This document shows positions 11,500 to 39,452 of a stretch of DNA of 64,000 bases, one piece after another (the first letter of the stretch is position 1; every line of letters begins with the position of its first letter). The stretch is from the NCBI GenBank assembly GCA_023898405.1, contig CP060221.1, positions 1,719,381-1,783,380 of the forward strand, in the 5' to 3' direction. Both the position numbers and the translations under genes were made by a program. The stretch is from Myxococcales bacterium (GTDB lineage: Bacteria; Myxococcota; UBA727; JABDBI01). The notes under the pieces are model-generated. The model ran no database searches. It had not been told where the DNA came from and worked only from the letters and a program-made list of their open reading frames with translations.

Positions 11500-11800
11500 T
11501 TAACTTTCTCATCTTGCCAAGTGATAATGCCTATCTAAATGTAGGTTCAAGTTTGAATGTAGGAGTAAGCACCCAAGCGGCAGAACGCCTGAAAGGACAA
11601 AAGGGATTTGTACCACAGATATTTCGTTGGGCAGTTGAAAGAACTTTTGCTTGGTTGAATAGAAACCGGCGCCTGGTTCGTAACTATGAGAAGAGTACAA
11701 GGCAACAGGAATCAATGAACTACATCGCTCATGCAAGCTTGTGCATCAAGCGATTGGAAAAGTGGCTTACCGCCTAAATTTTGATTTATTTTACAGCCTC
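11500..11800 (+). mobile_element. Partial IS5-family element (3' ~300 bp), same family as the full copy at 28633..29537
   Basis: ORF 11514..11777 matches the C-terminal ~85 aa of the transposase at 28656..29471 (VGVST.AERLKGQKGFVPQIFRWAVERTFAWLNRNRRLVRNYEK). Terminal repeat TTTGATTTATTTTACAGCCTC ends at 11800, followed by TAA. Confidence 0.75.
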
Positions 11801-13685
11801 TAAATCATGATTCAGACAATATAAAATTTCCTTAGCGTACGTTTCCGTCCTAGCCTGAAAAAAATTTGTTCTCTTCTTCTAGACATTTACGACTGTGCTT
11901 ACTGCATAGTCCCCCCGGCCTGACGGTCGGGGGAGCGCTTAGAAATTATAATTTTTTAAAAAAATTCCAATCAAGGAGTCAGCAAACTCAAGGTTTAATT
12001 ACTTATAGTCGCCGTGAAATTTCTTAACCAAAACTTCCTTACGCATTATTATTGTTGTTATTGCCTTTATTGGATGAATGAATAATAACAATGTTTTCGC
12101 TTTCCGAAGCCTTCTCGCGCTTATCAAATAAATAACGAAGACGCTTCAACATTTCTGGTTTTTCAATTAAAACATTTTTTCCCATTGATACAAAATTATG
12201 CATTTTTTCCATCGCCGAGTGCCAATTAATTTCTGGATGAGCAGATATCACAGGATATTTTTTCCAGGATTGATGGAATTCTACTAGATTTTTTTGCAGG
12301 TCAACGGGAATAGTTGTCCATATCAGCACAAATTCTCTGGCAATCCTTAGAGCAAGAGCCTCTATATTTTTTTGAACTGATTTTTCTCTTACGATTCGAT
12401 GTATTACTGACTCTCCCCCATCATTTTGGTCTTGCAACAATTTCAATAGTGATTCTTCATCGGTATTAAAAATAGAATTAATCTGCTTTTCTGATAGCTG
12501 GTAAAGGACACTGTTTAAGATAATTAGCAGCTCTTCTATTAATACCCATTTAAGATCCTTATTAACAAACATCTGCAACACATTATAGCCAACTTCGTTT
12601 TTAGTAACTGATAGATTGTTTAACGATTGTTCAATAGACTCAGCATTATTTAAGTGTTCTGACATTGACTCAAAAAGTTGAGCTTTCTCTTCTTCTGACA
12701 ATTCATATGCCGCACTAATCGCTTTTTTTACTTTATTTTCAAATAGAAAAAACAAATAGCTCGCCATTTCATTTCTTGATATTTCATCTTGATTATTCAG
12801 TGCTATTCCAATTGGCCGAACATAGTTATCAAGAGAAAATAGATATGCCATTCCTGGCAATACACCATTGGCCTCAAAGCTCTCCAATATCTCTTGACGC
12901 TGGCCCTCTAGAAAGACTTTAACGACGTCAATTTTTCCCATACCGACTGCAATGGAAATAACAGAATTGCGATTTTGATCTTCTGCTGTTACATCAGCGC
13001 CATTATCCAAAAGAATTCGTACAATTTCTTGATCATCATTCGATCCATTTTTAAAATTAAGGACTGCAAATCCAAGCGGCGTTATACCTGATTTGCTAGG
13101 TTCATTAATGTTGAAATATTTTTTATTTCGATCATTTAAAAGTAATTCCATTGCGCGTTTTTGTTTTTTTAACGCAGTAAAATGAAGTGCGCTTAATCCC
13201 TTGTCAGTAGTTTTGGCACCGATATCAATTTTCGTATTGAGCAACAACAGCTGCAATTTATCTGTATCACTAAGCCCAGATGCTATGTGGATAGGACGAA
13301 TACCATTCTTTTGTATTGCTAAGTTGACATCAGCACCAACACTAATCAAGTGATTAGCGTAATAGTCATCATCTATTGTAAGTGCGTAATGCAGTAGTGA
13401 ATATCCCGCTAATGGGCTGTTTAGAACCTGTAGGAATTTTTCTTGATTGAATTTTGTTTCAATATAGTCAACCAATTTCTTGAACTCATTTTTCCTATTC
13501 TCTTTGATTGAGTAAAAAAGCACTTCTACATTGCTACTATTTTCGTTAGTCGGATCAAAAATGGTTTCTGGCCGATCCAGCAGATATTTCATAAGCTCCC
13601 AGCTTCCTGTTCTCATAGCTAAAAGCAATAATGTTTTGTCACATAGTTGAGGGCTTAAATTCTCAGGAGCACCTATTTTTTTGTT

Positions 13686-14401
13686 GGGGCTGTAGTAGCT
13701 AAGCCCAATTAAGGGTAAGCTACTTCAATGTATAAGAGACGCAGCCGTTTAACAGTGCGCCAGCAGAGCGAACTGATAAAATTATTTGTTGCTGGTGTAA
13801 CCGCCAGAGCAGCATCAGAACTGGTTATTATTCAATCTAATACAGCCAGTAATTTCTTCTTAAGGTTAAGAAAATTAATAGCCAGCAAACTTCCAAGCTA
13901 TGACTTAAGCGGAGAAATTGAAGTAGATGAAAGTTATTTTGGCGGAGTTCGAAAAGGCAAGAGAGGACGTGGAGCTGGAGGTAAAGTAGCTGTTTTTGGC
14001 CTTCTTAAGCGAGGTGGCAAGGTTTACACAGCCATCATTCCTAATGCAAAAACAGAAACTCTTCTGCCTATTGTAGAAGAGAAAGTTCTTCCGGACAGCA
14101 TAGTTTATACAGATACCTTTAAATCATATAATGCCTTAGATGTATCTGCATTTCACCATATGCGCATTAATCATTCCAAGCTGTTTGCTGATAAGCAAAA
14201 CCATATCAATGGGATTGAGAACTTCTGGAACCAAGCCAAACGCAATCTGCGTAAGTTTAATGGGATAAAACAGGATAATTTTTATTGGTTTCTTAAGGAA
14301 TGTGAATGGCGCTTCAACGGAGGCAATCACCAACAGCTTCTAAAACAGCTAAAATACTGGTATAAACACACTAAACATTAACGCTTAGCTACTACAGCCC
14401 C
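13686..14401 (+). mobile_element. IS1595-family insertion sequence, apparently intact
   Basis: Perfect 19-bp terminal inverted repeats GGGGCTGTAGTAGCTAAGC (13686..13704) and GCTTAGCTACTACAGCCCC (14383..14401), flanked by an 8-bp direct duplication TTTTTGTT (13678..13685 and 14402..14409). Confidence 0.85.
13728..14381 (+). CDS. IS1595-family transposase
   Basis: 217-aa ORF with the typical IS1595/ISXO2-like basic Gly-rich segment (DESYFGGVRKGKRGRGAGGKVAVFGLLKRGGKVYT) and C-terminal NHSKLFADKQNHINGIENFW region. Confidence 0.85.
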   Translation: MYKRRSRLTVRQQSELIKLFVAGVTARAASELVIIQSNTASNFFLRLRKLIASKLPSYDLSGEIEVDESYFGGVRKGKRGRGAGGKVAVFGLLKRGGKVYTAIIPNAKTETLLPIVEEKVLPDSIVYTDTFKSYNALDVSAFHHMRINHSKLFADKQNHINGIENFWNQAKRNLRKFNGIKQDNFYWFLKECEWRFNGGNHQQLLKQLKYWYKHTKH

Positions 14402-15562: not shown

Positions 15563-16007
15563 ATGAACAATTTTGCCGAATGCCTTAGTTCTCCTAGTCT
15601 GAGTCGGCTGAGTGAACTTCTTGCTGCAAGAATTATCACCATCGAAAAAACTACAGTCACGAACTTATCAAGGGTATTCGGCTTCGATCCCTACAACAGT
15701 CCCTGGCATCACCTATTTTCACGCTATCGAATCTCGCTTTGGGCATTATCATTTGTTCTTATAAAGTTGATTCGAAAGACTTTTGTTGCAGATGGACAAG
15801 CACGTTTTTGTTGTCGATGACACAAGGTGCTTGCATAACGGCAAAATTGTTTTTGGCAAGGCAAAGCATCGTGATGCCGCACGCTCATCTCATGCTGTTA
15901 CCACTTTGCTATGGGGACATACTCAAAATGCTCTTGAGCATAAGATTTTATCTTTGGAAGCCTCACCTATTTCAAAACAGTTTCTAAAGCTCATGATTGG
16001 TAATTAA
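15563..16007 (+). pseudogene. Possible degraded DDE transposase remnant (IS701/IS4-like), frameshifted
   Basis: Two overlapping short ORFs in different frames (15563..15820, 15783..16007); the second contains HVFVVDDTRCLHNGKIVFGKAKH resembling the first catalytic Asp region of IS701/IS4-type transposases. Weak. Confidence 0.3.
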
Positions 16008-17207
16008 CTTAAGGGCTTTCTGATATTCCGCGCTTTGTTTGGTGATCTCGGCTGCCTGCAACAAGAGATCTATAGTCTTTTCGGTTGTACTATCGAGTTC
16101 GGTAATTTCGGGATAGTTGGCATTATCAAGCAGGGTTTGAATGCGAATATAATGGGAACCTGGCAGGGATTCAAAGATATTTTCCATAGCTCCTTCGTCT
16201 TCATTTGATGAACCATCTATTAGGGCATCTATTACAGCTGGAGCCCATGTTGCCGCTCCAGCATTGAGTAAGCTTGAACCATTATGACTGTTGAGAACTC
16301 CCTTGCCAGTTCCAATAGAGACAAGAACAATCCCTCGACGTAAAATCTCAGCTCGGCCGAAAATCCTTTCAGCTTTGTCAAAAGCTAAAGGAGCAGGATT
16401 ATTTTTGTAGATGCCGCCATCTATGAGAAATGCTTGGTAAGGCCGATTGTTTGAGTTTATGAGAGTTACTTCCTTGGGAATAAAAAAGGTGGGTGCCGCC
16501 GAAGTGGCGCGTGCAACTTCAAGCACATTAAGGTGTGAAAATTTGGCATTATCACTTTCCAAAGAAATACCTTGTTTTTCTTCTATAGAAAAAGTTGTGA
16601 GTAAAGTTGGTATGAGAGATTCAGAAAAAAGTTTTTTGCCAAAAGTTTTCTGTATGAGTGCTTCCATGGACAAAGCATCATAGAGGGGTCCTCGCAAACT
16701 GCAGACGGTTTTAGGTATTAAATTTGAACAGCTGTATTTAAAAATTAAACGAGCATTATCTTTATAAAATTTTTCAGCCTCTTTTACCGTCAGTGGCAGC
16801 TTGTCTTTTGAAAGAGGCATGGTGAGCAGTAAGGAGAGTAATCCTCCTGTAGATGTTCCTGCAATAAGATCAAAGAGCTCGTATATTCTTTTATCAGAGA
16901 CCTGTTCAAACTTTTGTAAGAGTCTTGCAAGAAGAACGCCGCGTATACCTCCACCATCAAGGCTTAATACCTTTATTGGGTTTAGTTTTTGGTTTTCGTA
17001 ATTTTCATCGGGAGCTTCAAGTCCTTCAGTCTCGTTTGCGATAGGTTTTTCAACAGGTGTGAACTTTTTAACTTCTTGGCTGCTTTTAGAGCCGTTTTTA
17101 GGCTGATCGACAAAGGAGTTGGGGGCATCACTGCATGATGAAACGATAAGAGTTTGAAATAAAAAACAGGATAAAAAAACTGTGAAAAATAAATTATTTG
17201 ATTTCAT
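15984..17207 (-). CDS. Patatin-like phospholipase, secreted/lipoprotein
   Basis: 407 aa; oxyanion motif LDGGGIRG, nucleophile motif AGTSTGG, catalytic Asp motif IDGGIYKNNP; N-terminal signal peptide with a lipobox-like LIVSSCS. Confidence 0.85.
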   Translation of the reverse strand: MKSNNLFFTVFLSCFLFQTLIVSSCSDAPNSFVDQPKNGSKSSQEVKKFTPVEKPIANETEGLEAPDENYENQKLNPIKVLSLDGGGIRGVLLARLLQKFEQVSDKRIYELFDLIAGTSTGGLLSLLLTMPLSKDKLPLTVKEAEKFYKDNARLIFKYSCSNLIPKTVCSLRGPLYDALSMEALIQKTFGKKLFSESLIPTLLTTFSIEEKQGISLESDNAKFSHLNVLEVARATSAAPTFFIPKEVTLINSNNRPYQAFLIDGGIYKNNPAPLAFDKAERIFGRAEILRRGIVLVSIGTGKGVLNSHNGSSLLNAGAATWAPAVIDALIDGSSNEDEGAMENIFESLPGSHYIRIQTLLDNANYPEITELDSTTEKTIDLLLQAAEITKQSAEYQKALKLITNHEL

Positions 17208-26680: not shown

Positions 26681-28243
26681 ATGAACACACAATTTATCTT
26701 GTGGTCATCTATTTTATCCATTTTTTTTTCTTTTCTCGTACATGCTGAGAAGAGCCTTAGTTTTGAGCCGGATCATTATATTAGCTATGATATCAAGGCG
26801 AGAAATGGCCATTGGCAGATGGTTAATTTAAGAGACCAGTTTTTGGAGCCGACTGATTTTTTGGTTAGGGGGCCGATCAAGTATTTGAATCCCACTCTCA
26901 AAAGACACAATAATCAGGTTTTTGAGATAAAAAATAAAAAGCTTCATTATGCTGCATACGAAGTATTTCCTGAATCCAATTATGACATCAATGAAACGGT
27001 TGTGGTTCATAATCAATTTGGCAGCTTTACTTTTGATGCTTTCAAGCCCAGCAGATTACTTGTGCCATCGATTAAGTCGCATATTTTTAAAGGTAAAAAA
27101 GATCGAAAAATTCTTGAAAACAGTGACCACTACCTTTGTTACGATATAAAACCTGAGCTGATTGTAACTGAGGGCGGATATTTGAAAGATGAATTTAGAG
27201 GAAGATCTTTTGATACCTTGATTGCAAAAAGATTATGCAATCCCGTAGCCAAACGACATGACGATAAATATTTTGACATAATAAATGATGTTGAGACGAA
27301 CCATTTGATGTGTTTTGAGCTCAGTAAAAAAAGAATCTTTCGTCTACTGCACTTCAAAAATCAATTTGGATTTAGATTTGCTGCTGCACTGAATGATGAA
27401 GAGCTATGTGTGCCTTCGACTAAAATAAAAATCAGAAAAAAATGCGAAGATCAAGTACCTGATTCCGCAGGTATATGCGGAGGCGACTGCCCTGTTGCAA
27501 CCGACTTATGTATTTATATTCCTGAAACCAATGAGTGTGGTTGTGCTCCAGAACAACCGCGATTTTGTGAAGACAATACACCAGATCCTCTTGGTGTATG
27601 CGGCGGAGATTGCCCCGATAATCTTGAATGTATAGCAGATCTAGCAAATCAAAGCTGTTATTGCAAAGAACCACCTAATCCATGTGGTTTAAATGCTGAT
27701 GGTCTGTGCGGAGGCGACTGCCCTGTTGCAACCGACTTATGTATTTATATTTCTGAAACCAATGAGTGTGGTTGTGCTCCAGAGCAACCGCGATTTTGTG
27801 AAGATAATACACCAGATCCTCTTGGTGTATGCGGCGGAGATTGCCCCGATAATCTTGAATGCATAGCAGATCTTAGCAGTCAAAGCTGTTATTGCAAAGA
27901 ACCACCTAATCCATGTGGTTTAAATGCTGACGGTCAGTGCGGAGGCGACTGCTTAGTTGCAAGTGAGATCTGTAGCTTTATTCCAGGAACAAATGAATGC
28001 GGTTGTGCTCCACAAGAACCATTGTTGTGTGAAGATAGTATTCCTGATTCAACCGGAATATGCGGCGGAGAATGTCCAAATAATTCAATATGCGCTCCCG
28101 ATTCAGTCAATCAAAAATGTTTTTGCCGACCGGTAATAGAAAGTTGTGGATTAAATGCCGAAGGTTTGTGTGGAGGAGATTGTTTAGATCCGAGTCAGAG
28201 CTGCACATTTATAATTGGTGCAGATATCTGCGCATGTCTCTAA
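26681..28243 (+). CDS. Secreted Cys-rich tandem-repeat protein (hypothetical)
   Basis: 520 aa; signal peptide; N-terminal half has two related ~110-aa segments (DHYISYDIKARNG... / DHYLCYDIKPELIV...); C-terminal half is 3.5 tandem 77-aa Cys-rich units built on a CGGDCP...C...NxCxC module. RBS AGGGGGAG upstream. Confidence 0.7.
   Translation: MNTQFILWSSILSIFFSFLVHAEKSLSFEPDHYISYDIKARNGHWQMVNLRDQFLEPTDFLVRGPIKYLNPTLKRHNNQVFEIKNKKLHYAAYEVFPESNYDINETVVVHNQFGSFTFDAFKPSRLLVPSIKSHIFKGKKDRKILENSDHYLCYDIKPELIVTEGGYLKDEFRGRSFDTLIAKRLCNPVAKRHDDKYFDIINDVETNHLMCFELSKKRIFRLLHFKNQFGFRFAAALNDEELCVPSTKIKIRKKCEDQVPDSAGICGGDCPVATDLCIYIPETNECGCAPEQPRFCEDNTPDPLGVCGGDCPDNLECIADLANQSCYCKEPPNPCGLNADGLCGGDCPVATDLCIYISETNECGCAPEQPRFCEDNTPDPLGVCGGDCPDNLECIADLSSQSCYCKEPPNPCGLNADGQCGGDCLVASEICSFIPGTNECGCAPQEPLLCEDSIPDSTGICGGECPNNSICAPDSVNQKCFCRPVIESCGLNAEGLCGGDCLDPSQSCTFIIGADICACL
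27466..28158 (+). repeat. Three in-frame 231-bp tandem repeats (units 1 and 2 about 96% identical, unit 3 diverged) inside CDS 26681..28243
   Basis: GCGGAGGCGACTGCC recurs at 27477, 27708 and 27939 (period 231 bp); units 1 and 2 differ at about 9 positions. Confidence 0.85.
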
Positions 28244-28370
28244 GTAAAATATAAATTGCTGAGAGGGCTTTAAAAATGATTTTTAGGGCCCTTTCTCAAT
28301 TACTCACCCAAAAGATCTAACTTTTTGTGGCATATTTTACTCAACATGATTGTTATTGGAGACGGGACTA

Positions 28371-28404
28371 AAAAAAGATTCCTAAGTACTTAGGAATCTT
28401 TTTT
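28371..28404. terminator. Bidirectional rho-independent terminator
   Basis: A-tract, perfect palindrome AGATTCCTAAGT/ACTTAGGAATCT, then T-tract (AAAAAAGATTCCTAAGTACTTAGGAATCTTTTTT). Confidence 0.65.
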
Positions 28405-28632
28405 GAAACCAAAGGTAGTACTTTAGCTGTAAAATTTCGTGAGTGAAAATTATCTATTCGAGAGCTTTGTGAGTAAATCCATCCATAGATTACGTGTCAA
28501 TAAGTGCACTCATGAGATAATACTTGAGGCCAATGATACTCTGCTTGGTGTTTTGCGATATCGTCTTGACTTGATTGGCACCAAGCAAGGATGTGACAAA
28601 GGTGACTGTGGAGCATGTACGGTGCTTCTTAA

Positions 28633-29537
28633 GAGGCTGTAAAAAAAATCAAATCTCAGGTGGTAAGCCAATTTTCCAATCGTCTGATACATAATCTTGC
28701 ATTAGCGATGTAGTTCATTGATTCCTGATGCTTTGTATTCTTCTCATAGTTACGCACCAGACGCCTATTTCGATTCAGCCAAGCAAAAGTTCGTTCTACG
28801 GCCCAACGAAATATTTGTGGTACAAACCCCTTTTGCCCTTTTAAACGTTCCGCAGTTTCTGTGCTTACGCCTACTCTCAAGCCTGAAGACAAATTCTTAT
28901 ATGCGTTATCTCCAAGAATCTTCGCTAATCTGGGAAACTTCTCGCGCTTATTGAGCTCAGTAACCAATTCCTCGCCGGCAACCCTATCAGATACATTTGC
29001 TGCGGTACAAATGCATAGGAGCATCAATCCCATCGTATCAACAACGATGTGGCGCTTTCTTCCATTAATCTTCTTTCCCCCATCCAAACCACGCTCATCT
29101 ACTCCTGGTTCCGCTGTCTGTGATTGGGAGTCGATGGAAACAAGTGAGGGGCTTGCATCTCTGCCAGCACAGGTTCTGACTATTGCCACGAGAATGCAGT
29201 TTAAGACCGCCCACAAACCAGAAACAGACCAGGTGCGAAAATAGTGATAGACAATACCGTGAGGAGGAAAGTCATTGGGTAAACAACGCCACACACAGCC
29301 GTTCTTTAAAACATAGAATATGGCATCAACTATGCTCCGAAAGCTATAGACACGACGTCTGCCTCGTTTGGCGTTAGCAGGAAAAAGTGGCTCAATCACT
29401 TCCCAGGCACAATCTGACAAACAGGTCTCATACAAGCACGACATGATATTTCCTTTCAAAAAGGTTTTCACGTCATACTTTCGTCACAGCGACATTTATT
29501 GAACCAGAATTGCCAAATTGATTTTTTTTACAGCCTC
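28633..29537 (-). mobile_element. IS5-family insertion sequence (IS1031-like, ~905 bp), apparently intact
   Basis: Perfect 20-bp terminal inverted repeats GAGGCTGTAAAAAAAATCAA (28633..28652 and reverse complement at 29518..29537), flanked by a 3-bp direct repeat TAA (28630..28632 and 29538..29540). Single transposase ORF. Confidence 0.9.
28656..29471 (-). CDS. IS5-family DDE transposase
   Basis: 271-aa ORF filling the element, with conserved C-terminal block AERLKGQKGFVPQIFRWAVERTFAWLNRNRRLVRNYEK shared with the remnant at 11514..11777. Confidence 0.9.
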   Translation of the reverse strand: MKTFLKGNIMSCLYETCLSDCAWEVIEPLFPANAKRGRRRVYSFRSIVDAIFYVLKNGCVWRCLPNDFPPHGIVYHYFRTWSVSGLWAVLNCILVAIVRTCAGRDASPSLVSIDSQSQTAEPGVDERGLDGGKKINGRKRHIVVDTMGLMLLCICTAANVSDRVAGEELVTELNKREKFPRLAKILGDNAYKNLSSGLRVGVSTETAERLKGQKGFVPQIFRWAVERTFAWLNRNRRLVRNYEKNTKHQESMNYIANARLCIRRLENWLTT

Positions 29538-29903
29538 TAATGGAAAACCTGTTTTATCGTGTCTTACGCTTGCTCAATTAATAAATGACTCGGATGATAT
29601 TTCTACTATCGAAAGCCTAGCAGAGAACAAAGGAATAGATATTTTGCTCGAAGCTTTTGAAGAGTGTGGCGCTTTGCAGTGCGGTTTTTGTCAGCCAGGA
29701 ATGATTTTATCGGCTAAAGCTTTACTCAGTAAAAATCATGCGCCTAGTCTTGAAGAAATTCGCCAAGCACTAAGCGGCAACCTATGCAGATGTACTGGCT
29801 ATAGTAAAATCTACATGGCAGTTATGGCAGCCGTATTGGTGAAAAACAAAAAAGTAGATTCACTCAAAGAAGCGATTGCTCAGCTAAAAAACGAAAATTA
29901 TCT

Positions 29904-32282
29904 ATGAACAGCATTTTTTCCCATGGAACGACCATCAAAGAGAGTATTCAAACGCATAAGCATCCTGATTTTGGTGTAGGGCACTCACGTAAAAAAATAG
30001 ATGCATTAGAAAAATTATTGGGGCGCACTCGTTATACCGATGATATTTCTTTACCAGGTATGCTTTTTGGTAAAATTGTACGAAGTCCCCATGCTCACGC
30101 GAGAATTATCAGTATCGATACATCGAGTATTTTGGATATGCCGGGTGTGGTGGATGTGATCATTGGGGCAGATATGCCTATTAAATATGGCGTGATTCCT
30201 TGGACCAAAGATGAATATCCCTTGGCGGTGGGAAAAACACGTTATGTTGGTGACGCTGTAGCTGCAGTTATCGCTCACAGTGAAAGCATCGCTTATGAAG
30301 CAGGGTTGAAATTGAAAGTAGAGTATGAGGTGTTACCAAGTATTCTGACGATAGCTCAGGCCAAAGTTACAGACGCACTACAAGTCAATGAACGGGCGAA
30401 AATAGGAAATATCACCAAGCATGTTGATTTAAGTTTTGGAAGTGTTGAAGAAAATTTGGCTCAAGCCGACGTAGTTATGAAAGAAAATTTTTCTTTTCAC
30501 AATACGACGCATGCTCCTATTGAGCCACACTGCGCTATTGGAAATTGCGATACTAATGGACGACTGACAGTTTATTCATCTACTCAAGTACCTCATTACT
30601 TGCACCGAACTTTATCTGAAGTACTAGATGTACCTGCTCATCAGATTCGTGTTATTCAACCTCCGCTGGGCGGTGCTTTTGGTGGTAAGAGTGAACCTTT
30701 TGATCTTGAGTTTGTAGTTGCGCTAGCATCGATGCGTTTGAAAAAGCCGGTAAAGATTCTCTATACGCGAGAAGAAGTATTTTTTGCTCATCGGGGTCGA
30801 CATCCTATGGATATAACAATGACCATGGGAGTAAAAAATAATGGCGAAATTATTGCGCTAAAAAATAATATTGAAATAGATGGTGGTGCCTATGCTTCGT
30901 TTGGCATGATTACTGCATTTTATGCTGGTCAATTGCTTTGTGGTCCGGTAGGAATGAAGAGCTATCAATTTTCATCGACTCGGTATTATACCAACAAACC
31001 AGCATGTGGCCCTAAACGAGGACATGGATCAGTGCAACCGCGTTTTGCTTTTGAAATAATGTGCGATATGGCGGCGGAAAAATTAAACATGGATCCCATT
31101 CAATTTCGCCTTATCAATGCTGTTAGCCCTGAATCTACAACTGTGAATGGTCAGCAGGTAGGAAGTTTAGGGCTTGAAGAGGTACTTTCGGAAGTAGCGC
31201 ATGCTTCTCAATGGACTGAGCGAAAAAAATTTTCTTACGGTCGTGGGCTTGGTGTGGCATGCAGCATGTATATCAGCGGTACTAATTATCCCGTTTACCC
31301 AAACGATATGCCTCAATCTTCAGTCTCTATTCGTTTTGATCGCTGTGGAGCACTGCATATTTTCAGCGGTGCGTCTGATATCGGACAAGGAGCAGCCACT
31401 GTGCTCGCTCAAATAGCGCAAGAAGAACTTGGTATTAATGGCGATAGAATCTGTGTTACCACTGCTGATACTGATCTTACTCCTGTAGATTTGGGAGCTT
31501 ATTCGAGCCGGGTGACTATGATGATGGGTCATGCAGCTATGGAGGCCTTTCGAAAAGCGCGTCATAAAATTTCTCAAGCTGTTGCTAAAAAATTGGGTGA
31601 ACGATTCTCAAAAGAGATTGATGATAGTGATTTAGTTTTTTCTAATGAGAGAATATTCCTCAAGGATGCTCCAGAAATATCTATGAGCTTTAACGATGCA
31701 CTCGTGTATTCGGAGTCCCTTTTTGGTTCTTTAGTTTTTAGCGGCGACTATCGGACGGTTGAACGTGGGGGAGACTATCGAGGAGGAAGCATTGGTGCAT
31801 CACCCGCCTATTCTTGTACGGCTCACATTGCAGATGTCAGTGTGGATACGAACACAGGAAAAATTAGCATCAATAAAATTTATGTAGCGCATGATTGTGG
31901 TCGCGCCATCAATCCACTTTTAGTTGAGGGGCAAATAGAGGGAAGCACCTACATGGGGGCCGCTGAAGTTGTACTTGAACAATTTATTGTGGATGAAGAA
32001 GAGGGGGCTCGTAAAGGAATGTTGATCGGTCCAAGTTTGCTCGACTACCGTATTCCTACAACGCTTGATACGCCACCGATACATTCGATCATTGTAGAAA
32101 AACCAGATAAAAATGGTCCATATGGTGCCAAAGAAGCAGGAGAAGGTCCTCTTCATAGCGCTATCCCTGCTGTAGCAAATGCTATTTATGCGGCTGTTGG
32201 GGTGAGATTGACTTCTCTTCCGTTTTCACCAGCACGAATCTTAGACGCTCTTAAAAAAAAAGGTGAGCCATGCTGCCCTTGA
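29904..32282 (+). CDS. Xanthine dehydrogenase-family molybdopterin-binding large subunit (aldehyde oxidase/CoxL-like)
   Basis: 792 aa with large-subunit motifs (PLGGAFGGK, GQGAATVLAQIAQEELG, VAHDCGRAINPLLVEGQIEG, GAKEAGEGPL). Start overlaps the small-subunit stop. Confidence 0.9.
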   Translation: MNSIFSHGTTIKESIQTHKHPDFGVGHSRKKIDALEKLLGRTRYTDDISLPGMLFGKIVRSPHAHARIISIDTSSILDMPGVVDVIIGADMPIKYGVIPWTKDEYPLAVGKTRYVGDAVAAVIAHSESIAYEAGLKLKVEYEVLPSILTIAQAKVTDALQVNERAKIGNITKHVDLSFGSVEENLAQADVVMKENFSFHNTTHAPIEPHCAIGNCDTNGRLTVYSSTQVPHYLHRTLSEVLDVPAHQIRVIQPPLGGAFGGKSEPFDLEFVVALASMRLKKPVKILYTREEVFFAHRGRHPMDITMTMGVKNNGEIIALKNNIEIDGGAYASFGMITAFYAGQLLCGPVGMKSYQFSSTRYYTNKPACGPKRGHGSVQPRFAFEIMCDMAAEKLNMDPIQFRLINAVSPESTTVNGQQVGSLGLEEVLSEVAHASQWTERKKFSYGRGLGVACSMYISGTNYPVYPNDMPQSSVSIRFDRCGALHIFSGASDIGQGAATVLAQIAQEELGINGDRICVTTADTDLTPVDLGAYSSRVTMMMGHAAMEAFRKARHKISQAVAKKLGERFSKEIDDSDLVFSNERIFLKDAPEISMSFNDALVYSESLFGSLVFSGDYRTVERGGDYRGGSIGASPAYSCTAHIADVSVDTNTGKISINKIYVAHDCGRAINPLLVEGQIEGSTYMGAAEVVLEQFIVDEEEGARKGMLIGPSLLDYRIPTTLDTPPIHSIIVEKPDKNGPYGAKEAGEGPLHSAIPAVANAIYAAVGVRLTSLPFSPARILDALKKKGEPCCP

Positions 32283-33250
32283 GTTCCTTTAGAGTTGAAA
32301 GCCCTTCGAATATGGCTCAACTTGCCGATTGTATTAAGAAAGCTTCTCAAAAAATTAAAATAATGTCGGGCGGAACAGATCTGATACCTAATCTTAAACA
32401 CCGCCTCTACGATATTGAACACATAATTTCTTTACAAAATATTCAGGAGCTGGATGGAGTAAAATTTGAAAATGGAAAAATTTATATCGGAGCAAATTTA
32501 AAACTTTGTGAAGTCATTTCTAATGATGTACTTGAGAATTATTGTCCAGCGCTAAAAGAGGCGGCATCACATATTGCTTCACCTCAGATTCGTAATATGG
32601 CAACTGTGGGGGGCAATATTTGTCTTGATACTCGTTGTTTATACTTTAATCAGAGTGAATTTTGGCGTTCAGCTTTAGGGTATTGCCTTAAAAAAGACGG
32701 TACAGTGTGCCATGTCATAAAAACCGGGAAACGCTGTGTTGCTGCAAGTTCTAATGATCTTGTAAGCGTGCTGCTTGCTTTAAAGGCCCGGCTTTGTATT
32801 TGGTCGCCTGGCCATGAATATGAAATAGATTTGGATGATTTTTATACAGCCAACGGTCTCAAAAATAATAAGCTTGGTGATGGTGAGATTGTTAGCAAAG
32901 TTTATTTCGAAGCAGTGAAAAATAAATGTACGGGCTTTGCCAAGTTGCGCCACCGACAGAGCATTGATTTTTCTCTCATAAGTGTTGGAGTGAGTTATAT
33001 GCTCGAGCATGAGCGAGTAAGAGATCTAACGGTGGTTGTTAATGCGTTGGTGGCAAAACCTAAGGTTCTTGTATTTCCGCAATTGGAACATACAACACTA
33101 GATAATCGTTTGATCAATGAAGTGGCGCTTCAGTCAGCTCAGAAGTGTCATCCTCAGAGCAATATCTGTGATGATCCTAAGTGGCGCAAAGAGATGGTTA
33201 AAATCTATGTTGAGCGTGCCTTTGAAAATAGTTTGAAAAATAGAAAATAG
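32270..33250 (+). CDS. Molybdenum hydroxylase FAD-binding medium subunit (CoxM-like)
   Basis: 326 aa with FAD-binding signature (MSGGTDLIPNLK, MATVGGNIC, CVAASSNDLVSVLLAL); overlaps the large-subunit gene by 13 nt. Confidence 0.85.
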   Translation: MLPLSSFRVESPSNMAQLADCIKKASQKIKIMSGGTDLIPNLKHRLYDIEHIISLQNIQELDGVKFENGKIYIGANLKLCEVISNDVLENYCPALKEAASHIASPQIRNMATVGGNICLDTRCLYFNQSEFWRSALGYCLKKDGTVCHVIKTGKRCVAASSNDLVSVLLALKARLCIWSPGHEYEIDLDDFYTANGLKNNKLGDGEIVSKVYFEAVKNKCTGFAKLRHRQSIDFSLISVGVSYMLEHERVRDLTVVVNALVAKPKVLVFPQLEHTTLDNRLINEVALQSAQKCHPQSNICDDPKWRKEMVKIYVERAFENSLKNRK

Positions 33251-39019: not shown

Positions 39020-39452
39020 ATTGTCGTAGAAAAGTAATAAGCCGGGTTCTGTCCGCGCTGTCATTGCTGAACAGCGATGGATGGACATTCATCTGGGAGC
39101 ATTGTTGCCAATGCCCTCGAGCGGTCTCCTTAGAAATCTATCACGCGGGCAGCGTGTGGAACTTTCGTCCCAGATTTCCCCATGACCTTTCACCGGGTGG
39201 GGTTTACCGTGCCGCATTTGTCTCCAAATGCGCGGTGTGCTCTTACCACACCGTTTCACCCTTTCCGCTTGGTGATCCGATACCCAGAGGAGACGAAACA
39301 TCGGTCGCAAGTATCGGCATAGCGGAGGTTTATTTTCTGTGACACTATCCTTCAAGTCGCCTTGACCGGCTGTTAGCCGGCACCGCGCCCTATGGTGCCC
39401 GGACTTTCCTCCAAGTGCAAATGCACTCAGCGTCCACCTCTTTTTCTACGGC
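39020..39452 (-). ncRNA. rnpB: RNase P RNA, bacterial type A
   Basis: Minus-strand sequence carries the universal blocks GGAGGAAAGTCCGGGCACCATAGGGC, GGGTGAAACGGTGTGGTAAGAGCACACCG, GGCACGGTAAACCCCACCCGG and ACAGAACCCGGCTTAT; P1 pairing CGTAGAAAAAG (5') with CTTTTCTACG (3') sets the ends. Boundaries +/- 10 nt. Confidence 0.9.

Follow-up and report, generated by a model that had tools for sequence, protein, structure and literature searches.

Within the IS5 family of insertion sequences (ISs), members of the IS1031 group commonly have a single open reading frame (ORF) and a three-nucleotide insertion site (PMC2516522), and their transposases are usually produced from one ORF (PMC3196728). Elements of the IS427 group typically make 2-bp duplications and carry two frameshifted ORFs, and some elements of the IS903 group possess outward promoters able to drive downstream genes (PMC3281130). 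Here we describe a 905-bp element of this family in a 64,000-nt stretch of bacterial DNA (hereafter the window; contig CP060221.1, positions 1,719,381 to 1,783,380, assembly GCA_023898405.1), where it interrupts the 2Fe-2S (gamma) subunit gene of an enzyme with three subunits. The account that we favor, and hold with high confidence, is that an active, multi-copy IS5-family element has inserted very recently, and polymorphically, into the 2Fe-2S gene of an enzyme resembling 4-hydroxybenzoyl-CoA reductase (HCR).

The insertion and its empty site

A repeat scan and a read-through of window 28300..30100 place the element at 28633..29537, on the minus strand. Both of its arms read GAGGCTGTAAAAAAAATCAA. 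The arm at 28633..28652 (+) marks the 3′ end of the transposase gene, while the arm at 29518..29537 (−), the exact complement of the opposite one, marks its 5′ (promoter) end. The two match at 20 of 20 positions, and the likeness ends at base 21. With up to three mismatches allowed, this 20-mer occurs four times in the window, as against 0.04 occurrences expected from shuffling; two of the four form the ends of the element itself, and another lies in what remains of a related element. The triplet TAA stands on either side of the element, at 28630..28632 and 29538..29540. The G+C content of the element is 44%, compared with 39% for the window, and its transposase gene is antisense to the surrounding operon.

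The 5′ part of the small-subunit gene (28439..28632, +) comprises codons 1–64 and two bases of codon 65, and the 3′ part (29541..29907, +) runs from the last base of codon 65 to the stop codon. Joined in silico, the two parts form an in-frame gene of 561 nt for a protein of 186 residues, which carries the Pfam domains Fer2 and Fer2_2 and two cysteine motifs, C52-x4-C57-x2-C60-x11-C72 and C112-x2-C115 ... C147-x-C149. The gene is broken between L64 and N65, which puts the insertion after the third cysteine (Cys60) and before the fourth (Cys72) of the first motif; the 3′ part holds Cys72 and the entire second 2Fe-2S motif (the Fer2_2 domain). Where the element is present, translation from the 5′ fragment continues for 10 nt into it and stops three codons in, at TAA 28640-28642, giving a product that ends in ...TVLLKRL. 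An ORF that starts inside the right end of the element (at TTG 29518, or at ATT 29509 in GenBank) reads into the 3′ part.

GenBank, which places the start of the small-subunit gene at an alternative codon (GTG 28469), lists as separate proteins the N-terminal fragment (USN50185, 57 aa), the transposase (USN50186), the C-terminal fragment (USN51964.1, 132 aa, "hypothetical protein H6731_07920"), and the large subunit (USN50187). Our analysis corrects the reading of three of these gene calls, with USN50185 and USN51964 being the halves of one gene.

An exact look-up of the large subunit yielded four contigs, which were aligned to the window. Three of them have an empty site: L001 (NCBI metagenome-assembled genome (MAG) GCA_020430645.1), L002 (ENA metagenome ERZ28655569), and L003 (Logan SRR12358675). 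All three follow the window as far as 28632 and pick it up again at 29538, and the two aligned blocks overlap by three contig bases; these contigs therefore have a single TAA and no element. The empty allele reads CTTCTTAATGGAAA, and an uninterrupted gene with Fer2 and Fer2_2, of 176 or 186 aa, is called in each. Downstream of the site, identity to the window is 100% over 8,745 bp in L001, 3,788 bp in L002, and 5,018 bp in L003, and in L003 the 100% identity holds on the other side of the site as well. If the insertion is set aside, the DNA of the two small-subunit halves agrees with that of all three intact alleles. The fourth contig, L004, comes from the sister run Logan SRR12358676 and carries the occupied site at its right junction, with 100% identity over 5,045 bp. 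It begins at window 29511, 27 bp within the right end of the element. Under the assumption that Logan contigs are built by k=31 de Bruijn assembly, this break point is what we would expect if other TAA-flanked copies were present and the empty allele absent.

The insertion is thus real and differs between near-identical populations, since L001–L003 are empty with one TAA and L004 is occupied. Direct comparison with the three empty-site assemblies establishes that the TAA duplication was created by the insertion. The 0 differences in 8,745 bp from an empty-site genome, and the presence of both alleles in sister runs, mark the event as very recent and as one that is still polymorphic. Exact look-ups of the N-terminal fragment products (67 and 57 aa), and of the 520-aa repeat protein encoded upstream together with the 174-aa gene preceding it, returned no record, so that the independent confirmation of the occupied site covers its right junction. 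To count occupied and empty sites, JGI metagenomes were scanned for the 23-nt left flank, which gave 0 matches, and a literature search on the run and assembly accessions found nothing.

These comparisons bear out most of an initial annotation of this DNA, which had described perfect 20-bp terminal inverted repeats at 28633..29537, a TAA duplication with a precise split of the gene, a single small-subunit ORF with both cysteine clusters restored by deletion in silico, and a very recent event. It had also considered that related genomes might show the same interrupted arrangement without an element, or that the two halves might fail to align to one homolog. Instead, the gene is uninterrupted in related genomes and both halves align to one contiguous homolog.

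The transposase and other copies of the element

The sole long ORF of the element (28656..29471, −) encodes a DDE transposase, as identified by Pfam, NCBIfam, and alignment. The protein has 271 residues when read from GTG 29471 and 262 when read from ATG 29444. The shorter product is more likely, because AGGA precedes ATG 29444 and most homologs are 262 aa long. The Pfam domains DUF4096 (a helix-turn-helix domain; PF13340), DDE_Tnp_1 (PF01609), and DDE_Tnp_1_2 (PF13586) are all found above their cut-offs. The NCBIfam model NF033580 (transpos_IS5_3, "IS5 family transposase") matches with 183.4 bits over positions 2–257 of 258, against a curated cut-off of 110 bits, and with the three Pfam domains this agrees with the family assigned in the initial annotation. 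In an alignment of 21 sequences, made up of the transposase and 20 homologs of 42–88% identity, D114, D188, E226, and an RW-VERTF motif occupy invariant columns, with R222 four residues before E226. By motif position, D114, D188, and E226 are a candidate catalytic triad, and the invariance of these residues and of the motif makes the gene look functional. A consensus scan inside the element revealed no convincing terminator, with counts equal to the shuffle expectation.

The closest proteins with an NCBI record are about 66% identical to the transposase and unnamed. Among 72,556 plasmid records, the best transposases are at most 44% identical and are labelled just "IS5 family transposase", and an exact look-up of the 271-aa product returned no record. 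When the GTDB representative genomes were scanned with the transposase protein, 119 pattern matches were obtained and 0 were confirmed by tblastn. Scanning the same genomes with the 20-bp inverted repeat gave 15 single matches in unrelated taxa, without similarity to the element or the transposase, which we regard as chance occurrences.

Judged by described features only, the element resembles the IS1031 group of IS5. It is about 900 bp long, its inverted repeats start with GAG, and it makes a 3-bp duplication at a T-N-A-type site; the three nucleotides duplicated here are TAA, and TTA or TAA flank the other copies. It has one uninterrupted transposase ORF of 262/271 aa that spans the whole profile, with no programmed frameshift. 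What sets it apart is that no close named relative was found among the plasmid records or NCBI proteins. The IS427 group, the alternative subgroup, differs from the element in duplication length and ORF layout, and we judged this assignment less likely for an element with neither a 2-bp duplication nor a frameshifted ORF pair.

The source genome, a closed MAG of 2,515,055 bp, holds at least 10 transposase accessions in one 90% cluster, 0–3 residues apart. The 262-aa product is indexed in 46 collection blocks, from which ten contigs were taken; L005 (JGI) was added to these, as was L031, the one further copy that a degenerate pattern over both element ends detected in JGI metagenomes. The full 905 bp are present at 99.9–100% identity, in differing flanks, in 11 of these 12 contigs (L005, L007–L015, and L031), while L006 contains the first 871 bp at 100% identity. 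All the other full-length copies have the same inverted repeats. Counting those of the window, the metagenome contigs show nine different left flanks and eight different right flanks, and all flanks of the other copies end in TTA or TAA, defining T(T/A)A sites. The element is multi-copy and currently active. Labels such as MUNK22-1 and WANG18-1 suggest that the samples come from sewage or wastewater.

The interrupted enzyme and its operon

The two genes downstream of the split gene are intact. The molybdopterin-binding large subunit (29904..32282, +; 792 aa) contains the domains Ald_Xan_dh_C, MoCoBD_1, and MoCoBD_2 and fits its Pfam and NCBIfam profiles over their entire length. The flavin adenine dinucleotide (FAD) subunit (32270..33250, +; 326 aa) contains FAD_binding_5 and CO_deh_flav_C as well as a Cys-rich loop, and covers positions 2–308 of the 321 in its NCBIfam profile. 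The large-subunit protein is identical in the empty-site assemblies, and its ATG overlaps the stop codon of the small-subunit gene (ATGA). The initial annotation had called both genes intact, and the full-length profile matches and the identity to the empty-site assemblies agree with this.

Domains of all three subunits of the three-subunit type of xanthine oxidase, or molybdenum hydroxylase, are found by Pfam in this one operon; for the large subunit they comprise a hammerhead domain and two MoCo-binding domains. The closest models of the large and FAD subunits are those of HCR (HcrCAB of Thauera aromatica; PDB 1RM6 and 1SB3). The best NCBIfam model of the large subunit is TIGR03194, with 778.1 bits over positions 3–746 of 746 (equivalog cut-off 994.55), and that of the FAD subunit is TIGR03195, with 217 bits (cut-off 404.55). 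For the restored small subunit, the top NCBIfam match is a fused 905-aa aldehyde oxidoreductase model; TIGR03193 (reductase gamma) follows close behind, second overall and the best small-subunit model, with 158.1 bits (cut-off 257.8). All three subunit scores thus lie below the curated equivalog cut-offs, in which the enzyme differs from HCR.

A Cys-rich insertion like that of HCR is present in the FAD subunit. The best solved relative of this subunit is Thauera HcrB (1rm6_B, E = 1e-41), and C123, C139, C147, and C156 align with Cys122, 138, 146, and 155 of that structure, which we take to be the ligands of an extra 4Fe-4S cluster. The gene order small-large-FAD is also that of hcrCAB. Among the operon neighbors there are no genes of a benzoyl-CoA pathway or of aromatic degradation, and hence no pathway context; the neighbors are a 358-aa protein of unknown type, BolA, a LysR regulator, and an amino-acid permease. 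On profile and structural similarity, we place the enzyme in the xanthine oxidase family and class it as HCR-like. The name "molybdenum hydroxylase" given in the initial annotation is therefore correct at the level of the family, but the nearest characterized relative is the reductive HCR, including the loop for the extra 4Fe-4S cluster.

In the xanthine oxidase family, electrons pass from the molybdenum cofactor through two 2Fe-2S clusters to FAD. Transposition of the element into the T-A-A site within the 2Fe-2S subunit gene would leave two fragments, neither of which is predicted to assemble the first 2Fe-2S cluster. Electron transfer from molybdenum to FAD would then be broken and the holoenzyme lost. 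We consider this loss likely, because in the first Fe-S motif the insertion splits the third cysteine from the fourth. We also weighed a small subunit that functions in "split" form and rejected it, as the break falls inside the cluster-binding motif. In addition, a stretch of antisense IS RNA, about 870 nt long and untranslated, and the loss of translational coupling at the ATGA overlap would probably lower the expression of the two intact downstream genes.

Upstream of the operon, a 34-nt perfect palindrome, AAAAAAAGATTCCTAAGTACTTAGGAATCTTTTTT, occupies 28371..28404, in the gap that separates the preceding gene from the small-subunit gene. It resembles a bidirectional terminator, and only 35-65 bp remain after it for a promoter of the operon's own. 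The preceding gene (26681..28243) encodes a secreted-looking, Cys-rich DUF7450 repeat protein of 520 aa, with a tandem array at 27476..28020 that consists of 2.4 copies of a 231-nt unit (90% match). The same protein has 443 aa in L001 and L002, which is exactly one unit (77 aa) fewer, and the repeat number therefore varies among near-identical strains.

Surroundings, alternative explanations, and known parallels

Other mobile DNA is found in the left part of the window. A second intact insertion sequence, of the IS1595 family, spans 716 bp at 13686..14401. Its 19-bp inverted repeats (GGGGCTGTAGTAGCTAAGC) match perfectly, and 8 bp of target (TTTTTGTT) are duplicated at 13678-85 and 14402-09. 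Its ISXO2-like transposase has 217 aa (13728..14381), and a fragment of the same family adjoins the IS5 element in contig L008. The remnant of a related IS5 element (11523..11800, −; 278 bp) shares 82% identity with the 905-bp element over the first 278 bp of the latter. Its terminal repeat survives with one mismatch and is followed by TAA, and it encodes only the last ~84 transposase residues; it is what is left of an earlier insertion by a sister element, since decayed.

Near these elements lie genes for an ankyrin-repeat protein (12039..13628, −) and a patatin-like phospholipase (15984..17207, −), types of gene that are often present in host-associated or intracellular bacteria. With these genes, the small genome, and the G+C content of 39%, the GenBank label "Myxococcales" looks doubtful. 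A bacterial class A RNase P RNA is encoded at 39022..39449 (−; 291 bits, full-length match). Hardly any complete ORF of more than 60 aa is listed in window 1..4676, likely owing to a long gene that runs off the left window end, as such ORFs are not listed.

Several points weigh against the account of a recent, inactivating, and polymorphic insertion. L004 and the source genome may derive from one sampling campaign; the contig backs the junction at the level of reads but may not represent an independent population. Several short-read contigs pair unlike triplets (e.g., TTA and TAA in L005). They are probably assembly chimeras across the repeat, and the target statistics drawn from them are accordingly soft. 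Loss of function and polarity are predictions from the sequence. Finally, a possible restart codon for the C-terminal fragment (TTG 29518 or ATT 29509) lies inside the end of the element, so some translation, and with it some coupling to the large subunit, could persist.

A more far-reaching reading, which we regard as unlikely, takes the insertion for a loss-of-function allele that is rising in one wastewater population, amid a burst of an unnamed T-W-A-targeting IS5 element. The host would then be a small-genome, possibly host-associated bacterium, and the insertion no neutral accident. If true, this would be a natural case of IS-driven genome reduction followed in real time between samples.

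It is very unlikely that the insertion has rewired expression instead of abolishing it, with an outward or hybrid promoter of the element driving the large and FAD genes. The outward promoters of the IS903 group offer a precedent within the family, and the restart ORF begins within the end of the element. However, a consensus scan found no plus-strand sigma-70-like site in the last ~90 bp or across the junction, and the promoter-like sites total 4, compared with 4.0 expected from shuffles. Moreover, from what is established for the xanthine oxidase family, the downstream subunits would have no electron path if the 2Fe-2S subunit were incomplete.

Just as unlikely is an old, fixed pseudogene, in which the operon would be a decaying relic of a shrinking genome and the insertion one step of a long decay. 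A genome of only 2.5 Mb with many IS copies, the IS5 remnant and the IS1595-family element in the same window, and the hint of a host-associated lifestyle from the ankyrin-repeat and patatin genes would all suit such a history. The operon itself does not: the downstream genes are full length, with no frameshift or stop in either and 0 differences in 8,745 bp from empty-site genomes; the small-subunit halves equal the intact alleles at the DNA level (100% on both sides in L003); and the insertion is polymorphic between samples and is not present in all related lineages. The "ongoing gene decay" of the initial annotation stands only in part. IS elements are active in the window, but the flanking genes are without decay, and the claim exceeds the evidence of the locus.

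That a multi-copy repeat was threaded wrongly into the locus at MAG closure, the real gene being intact, is also very unlikely. Metagenome assemblies tend to fail at repeats, and this element is a multi-copy one; the short-read contigs L005 and L013 appear chimeric across it, and the gene is intact in three other assemblies. Yet the junctions are base-exact, the TAA duplication is in line with the T(T/A)A flanks of all other copies, the independent contig L004 shows an identical right junction in which 27 bp of the element precede the flank, and a target-site duplication is not a product of misjoining.

We therefore return to a very recent, still polymorphic insertion of an active IS5-family element as the favored account. 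The event is real but ordinary: an unnamed member of a well-known IS family interrupts a gene, and no new mechanism is involved. Its value lies in documenting this unnamed element with its exact ends, target, and copies, in showing that transposition is currently active in an uncultured lineage with a 2.5-Mb genome, and in providing a clean pair of occupied and empty alleles that could act as a strain marker in wastewater metagenomes.

The insertion is reminiscent of other cases of IS-mediated gene inactivation, such as the IS expansions in host-associated bacteria like Amoebophilus asiaticus, in the combination of a near-identical multi-copy IS, a small genome, and an interrupted gene with a target duplication. 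For Amoebophilus asiaticus, no evidence for recent transposition is reported (PMC3196728). Here, in contrast, the empty-site polymorphism shows recent transposition directly.

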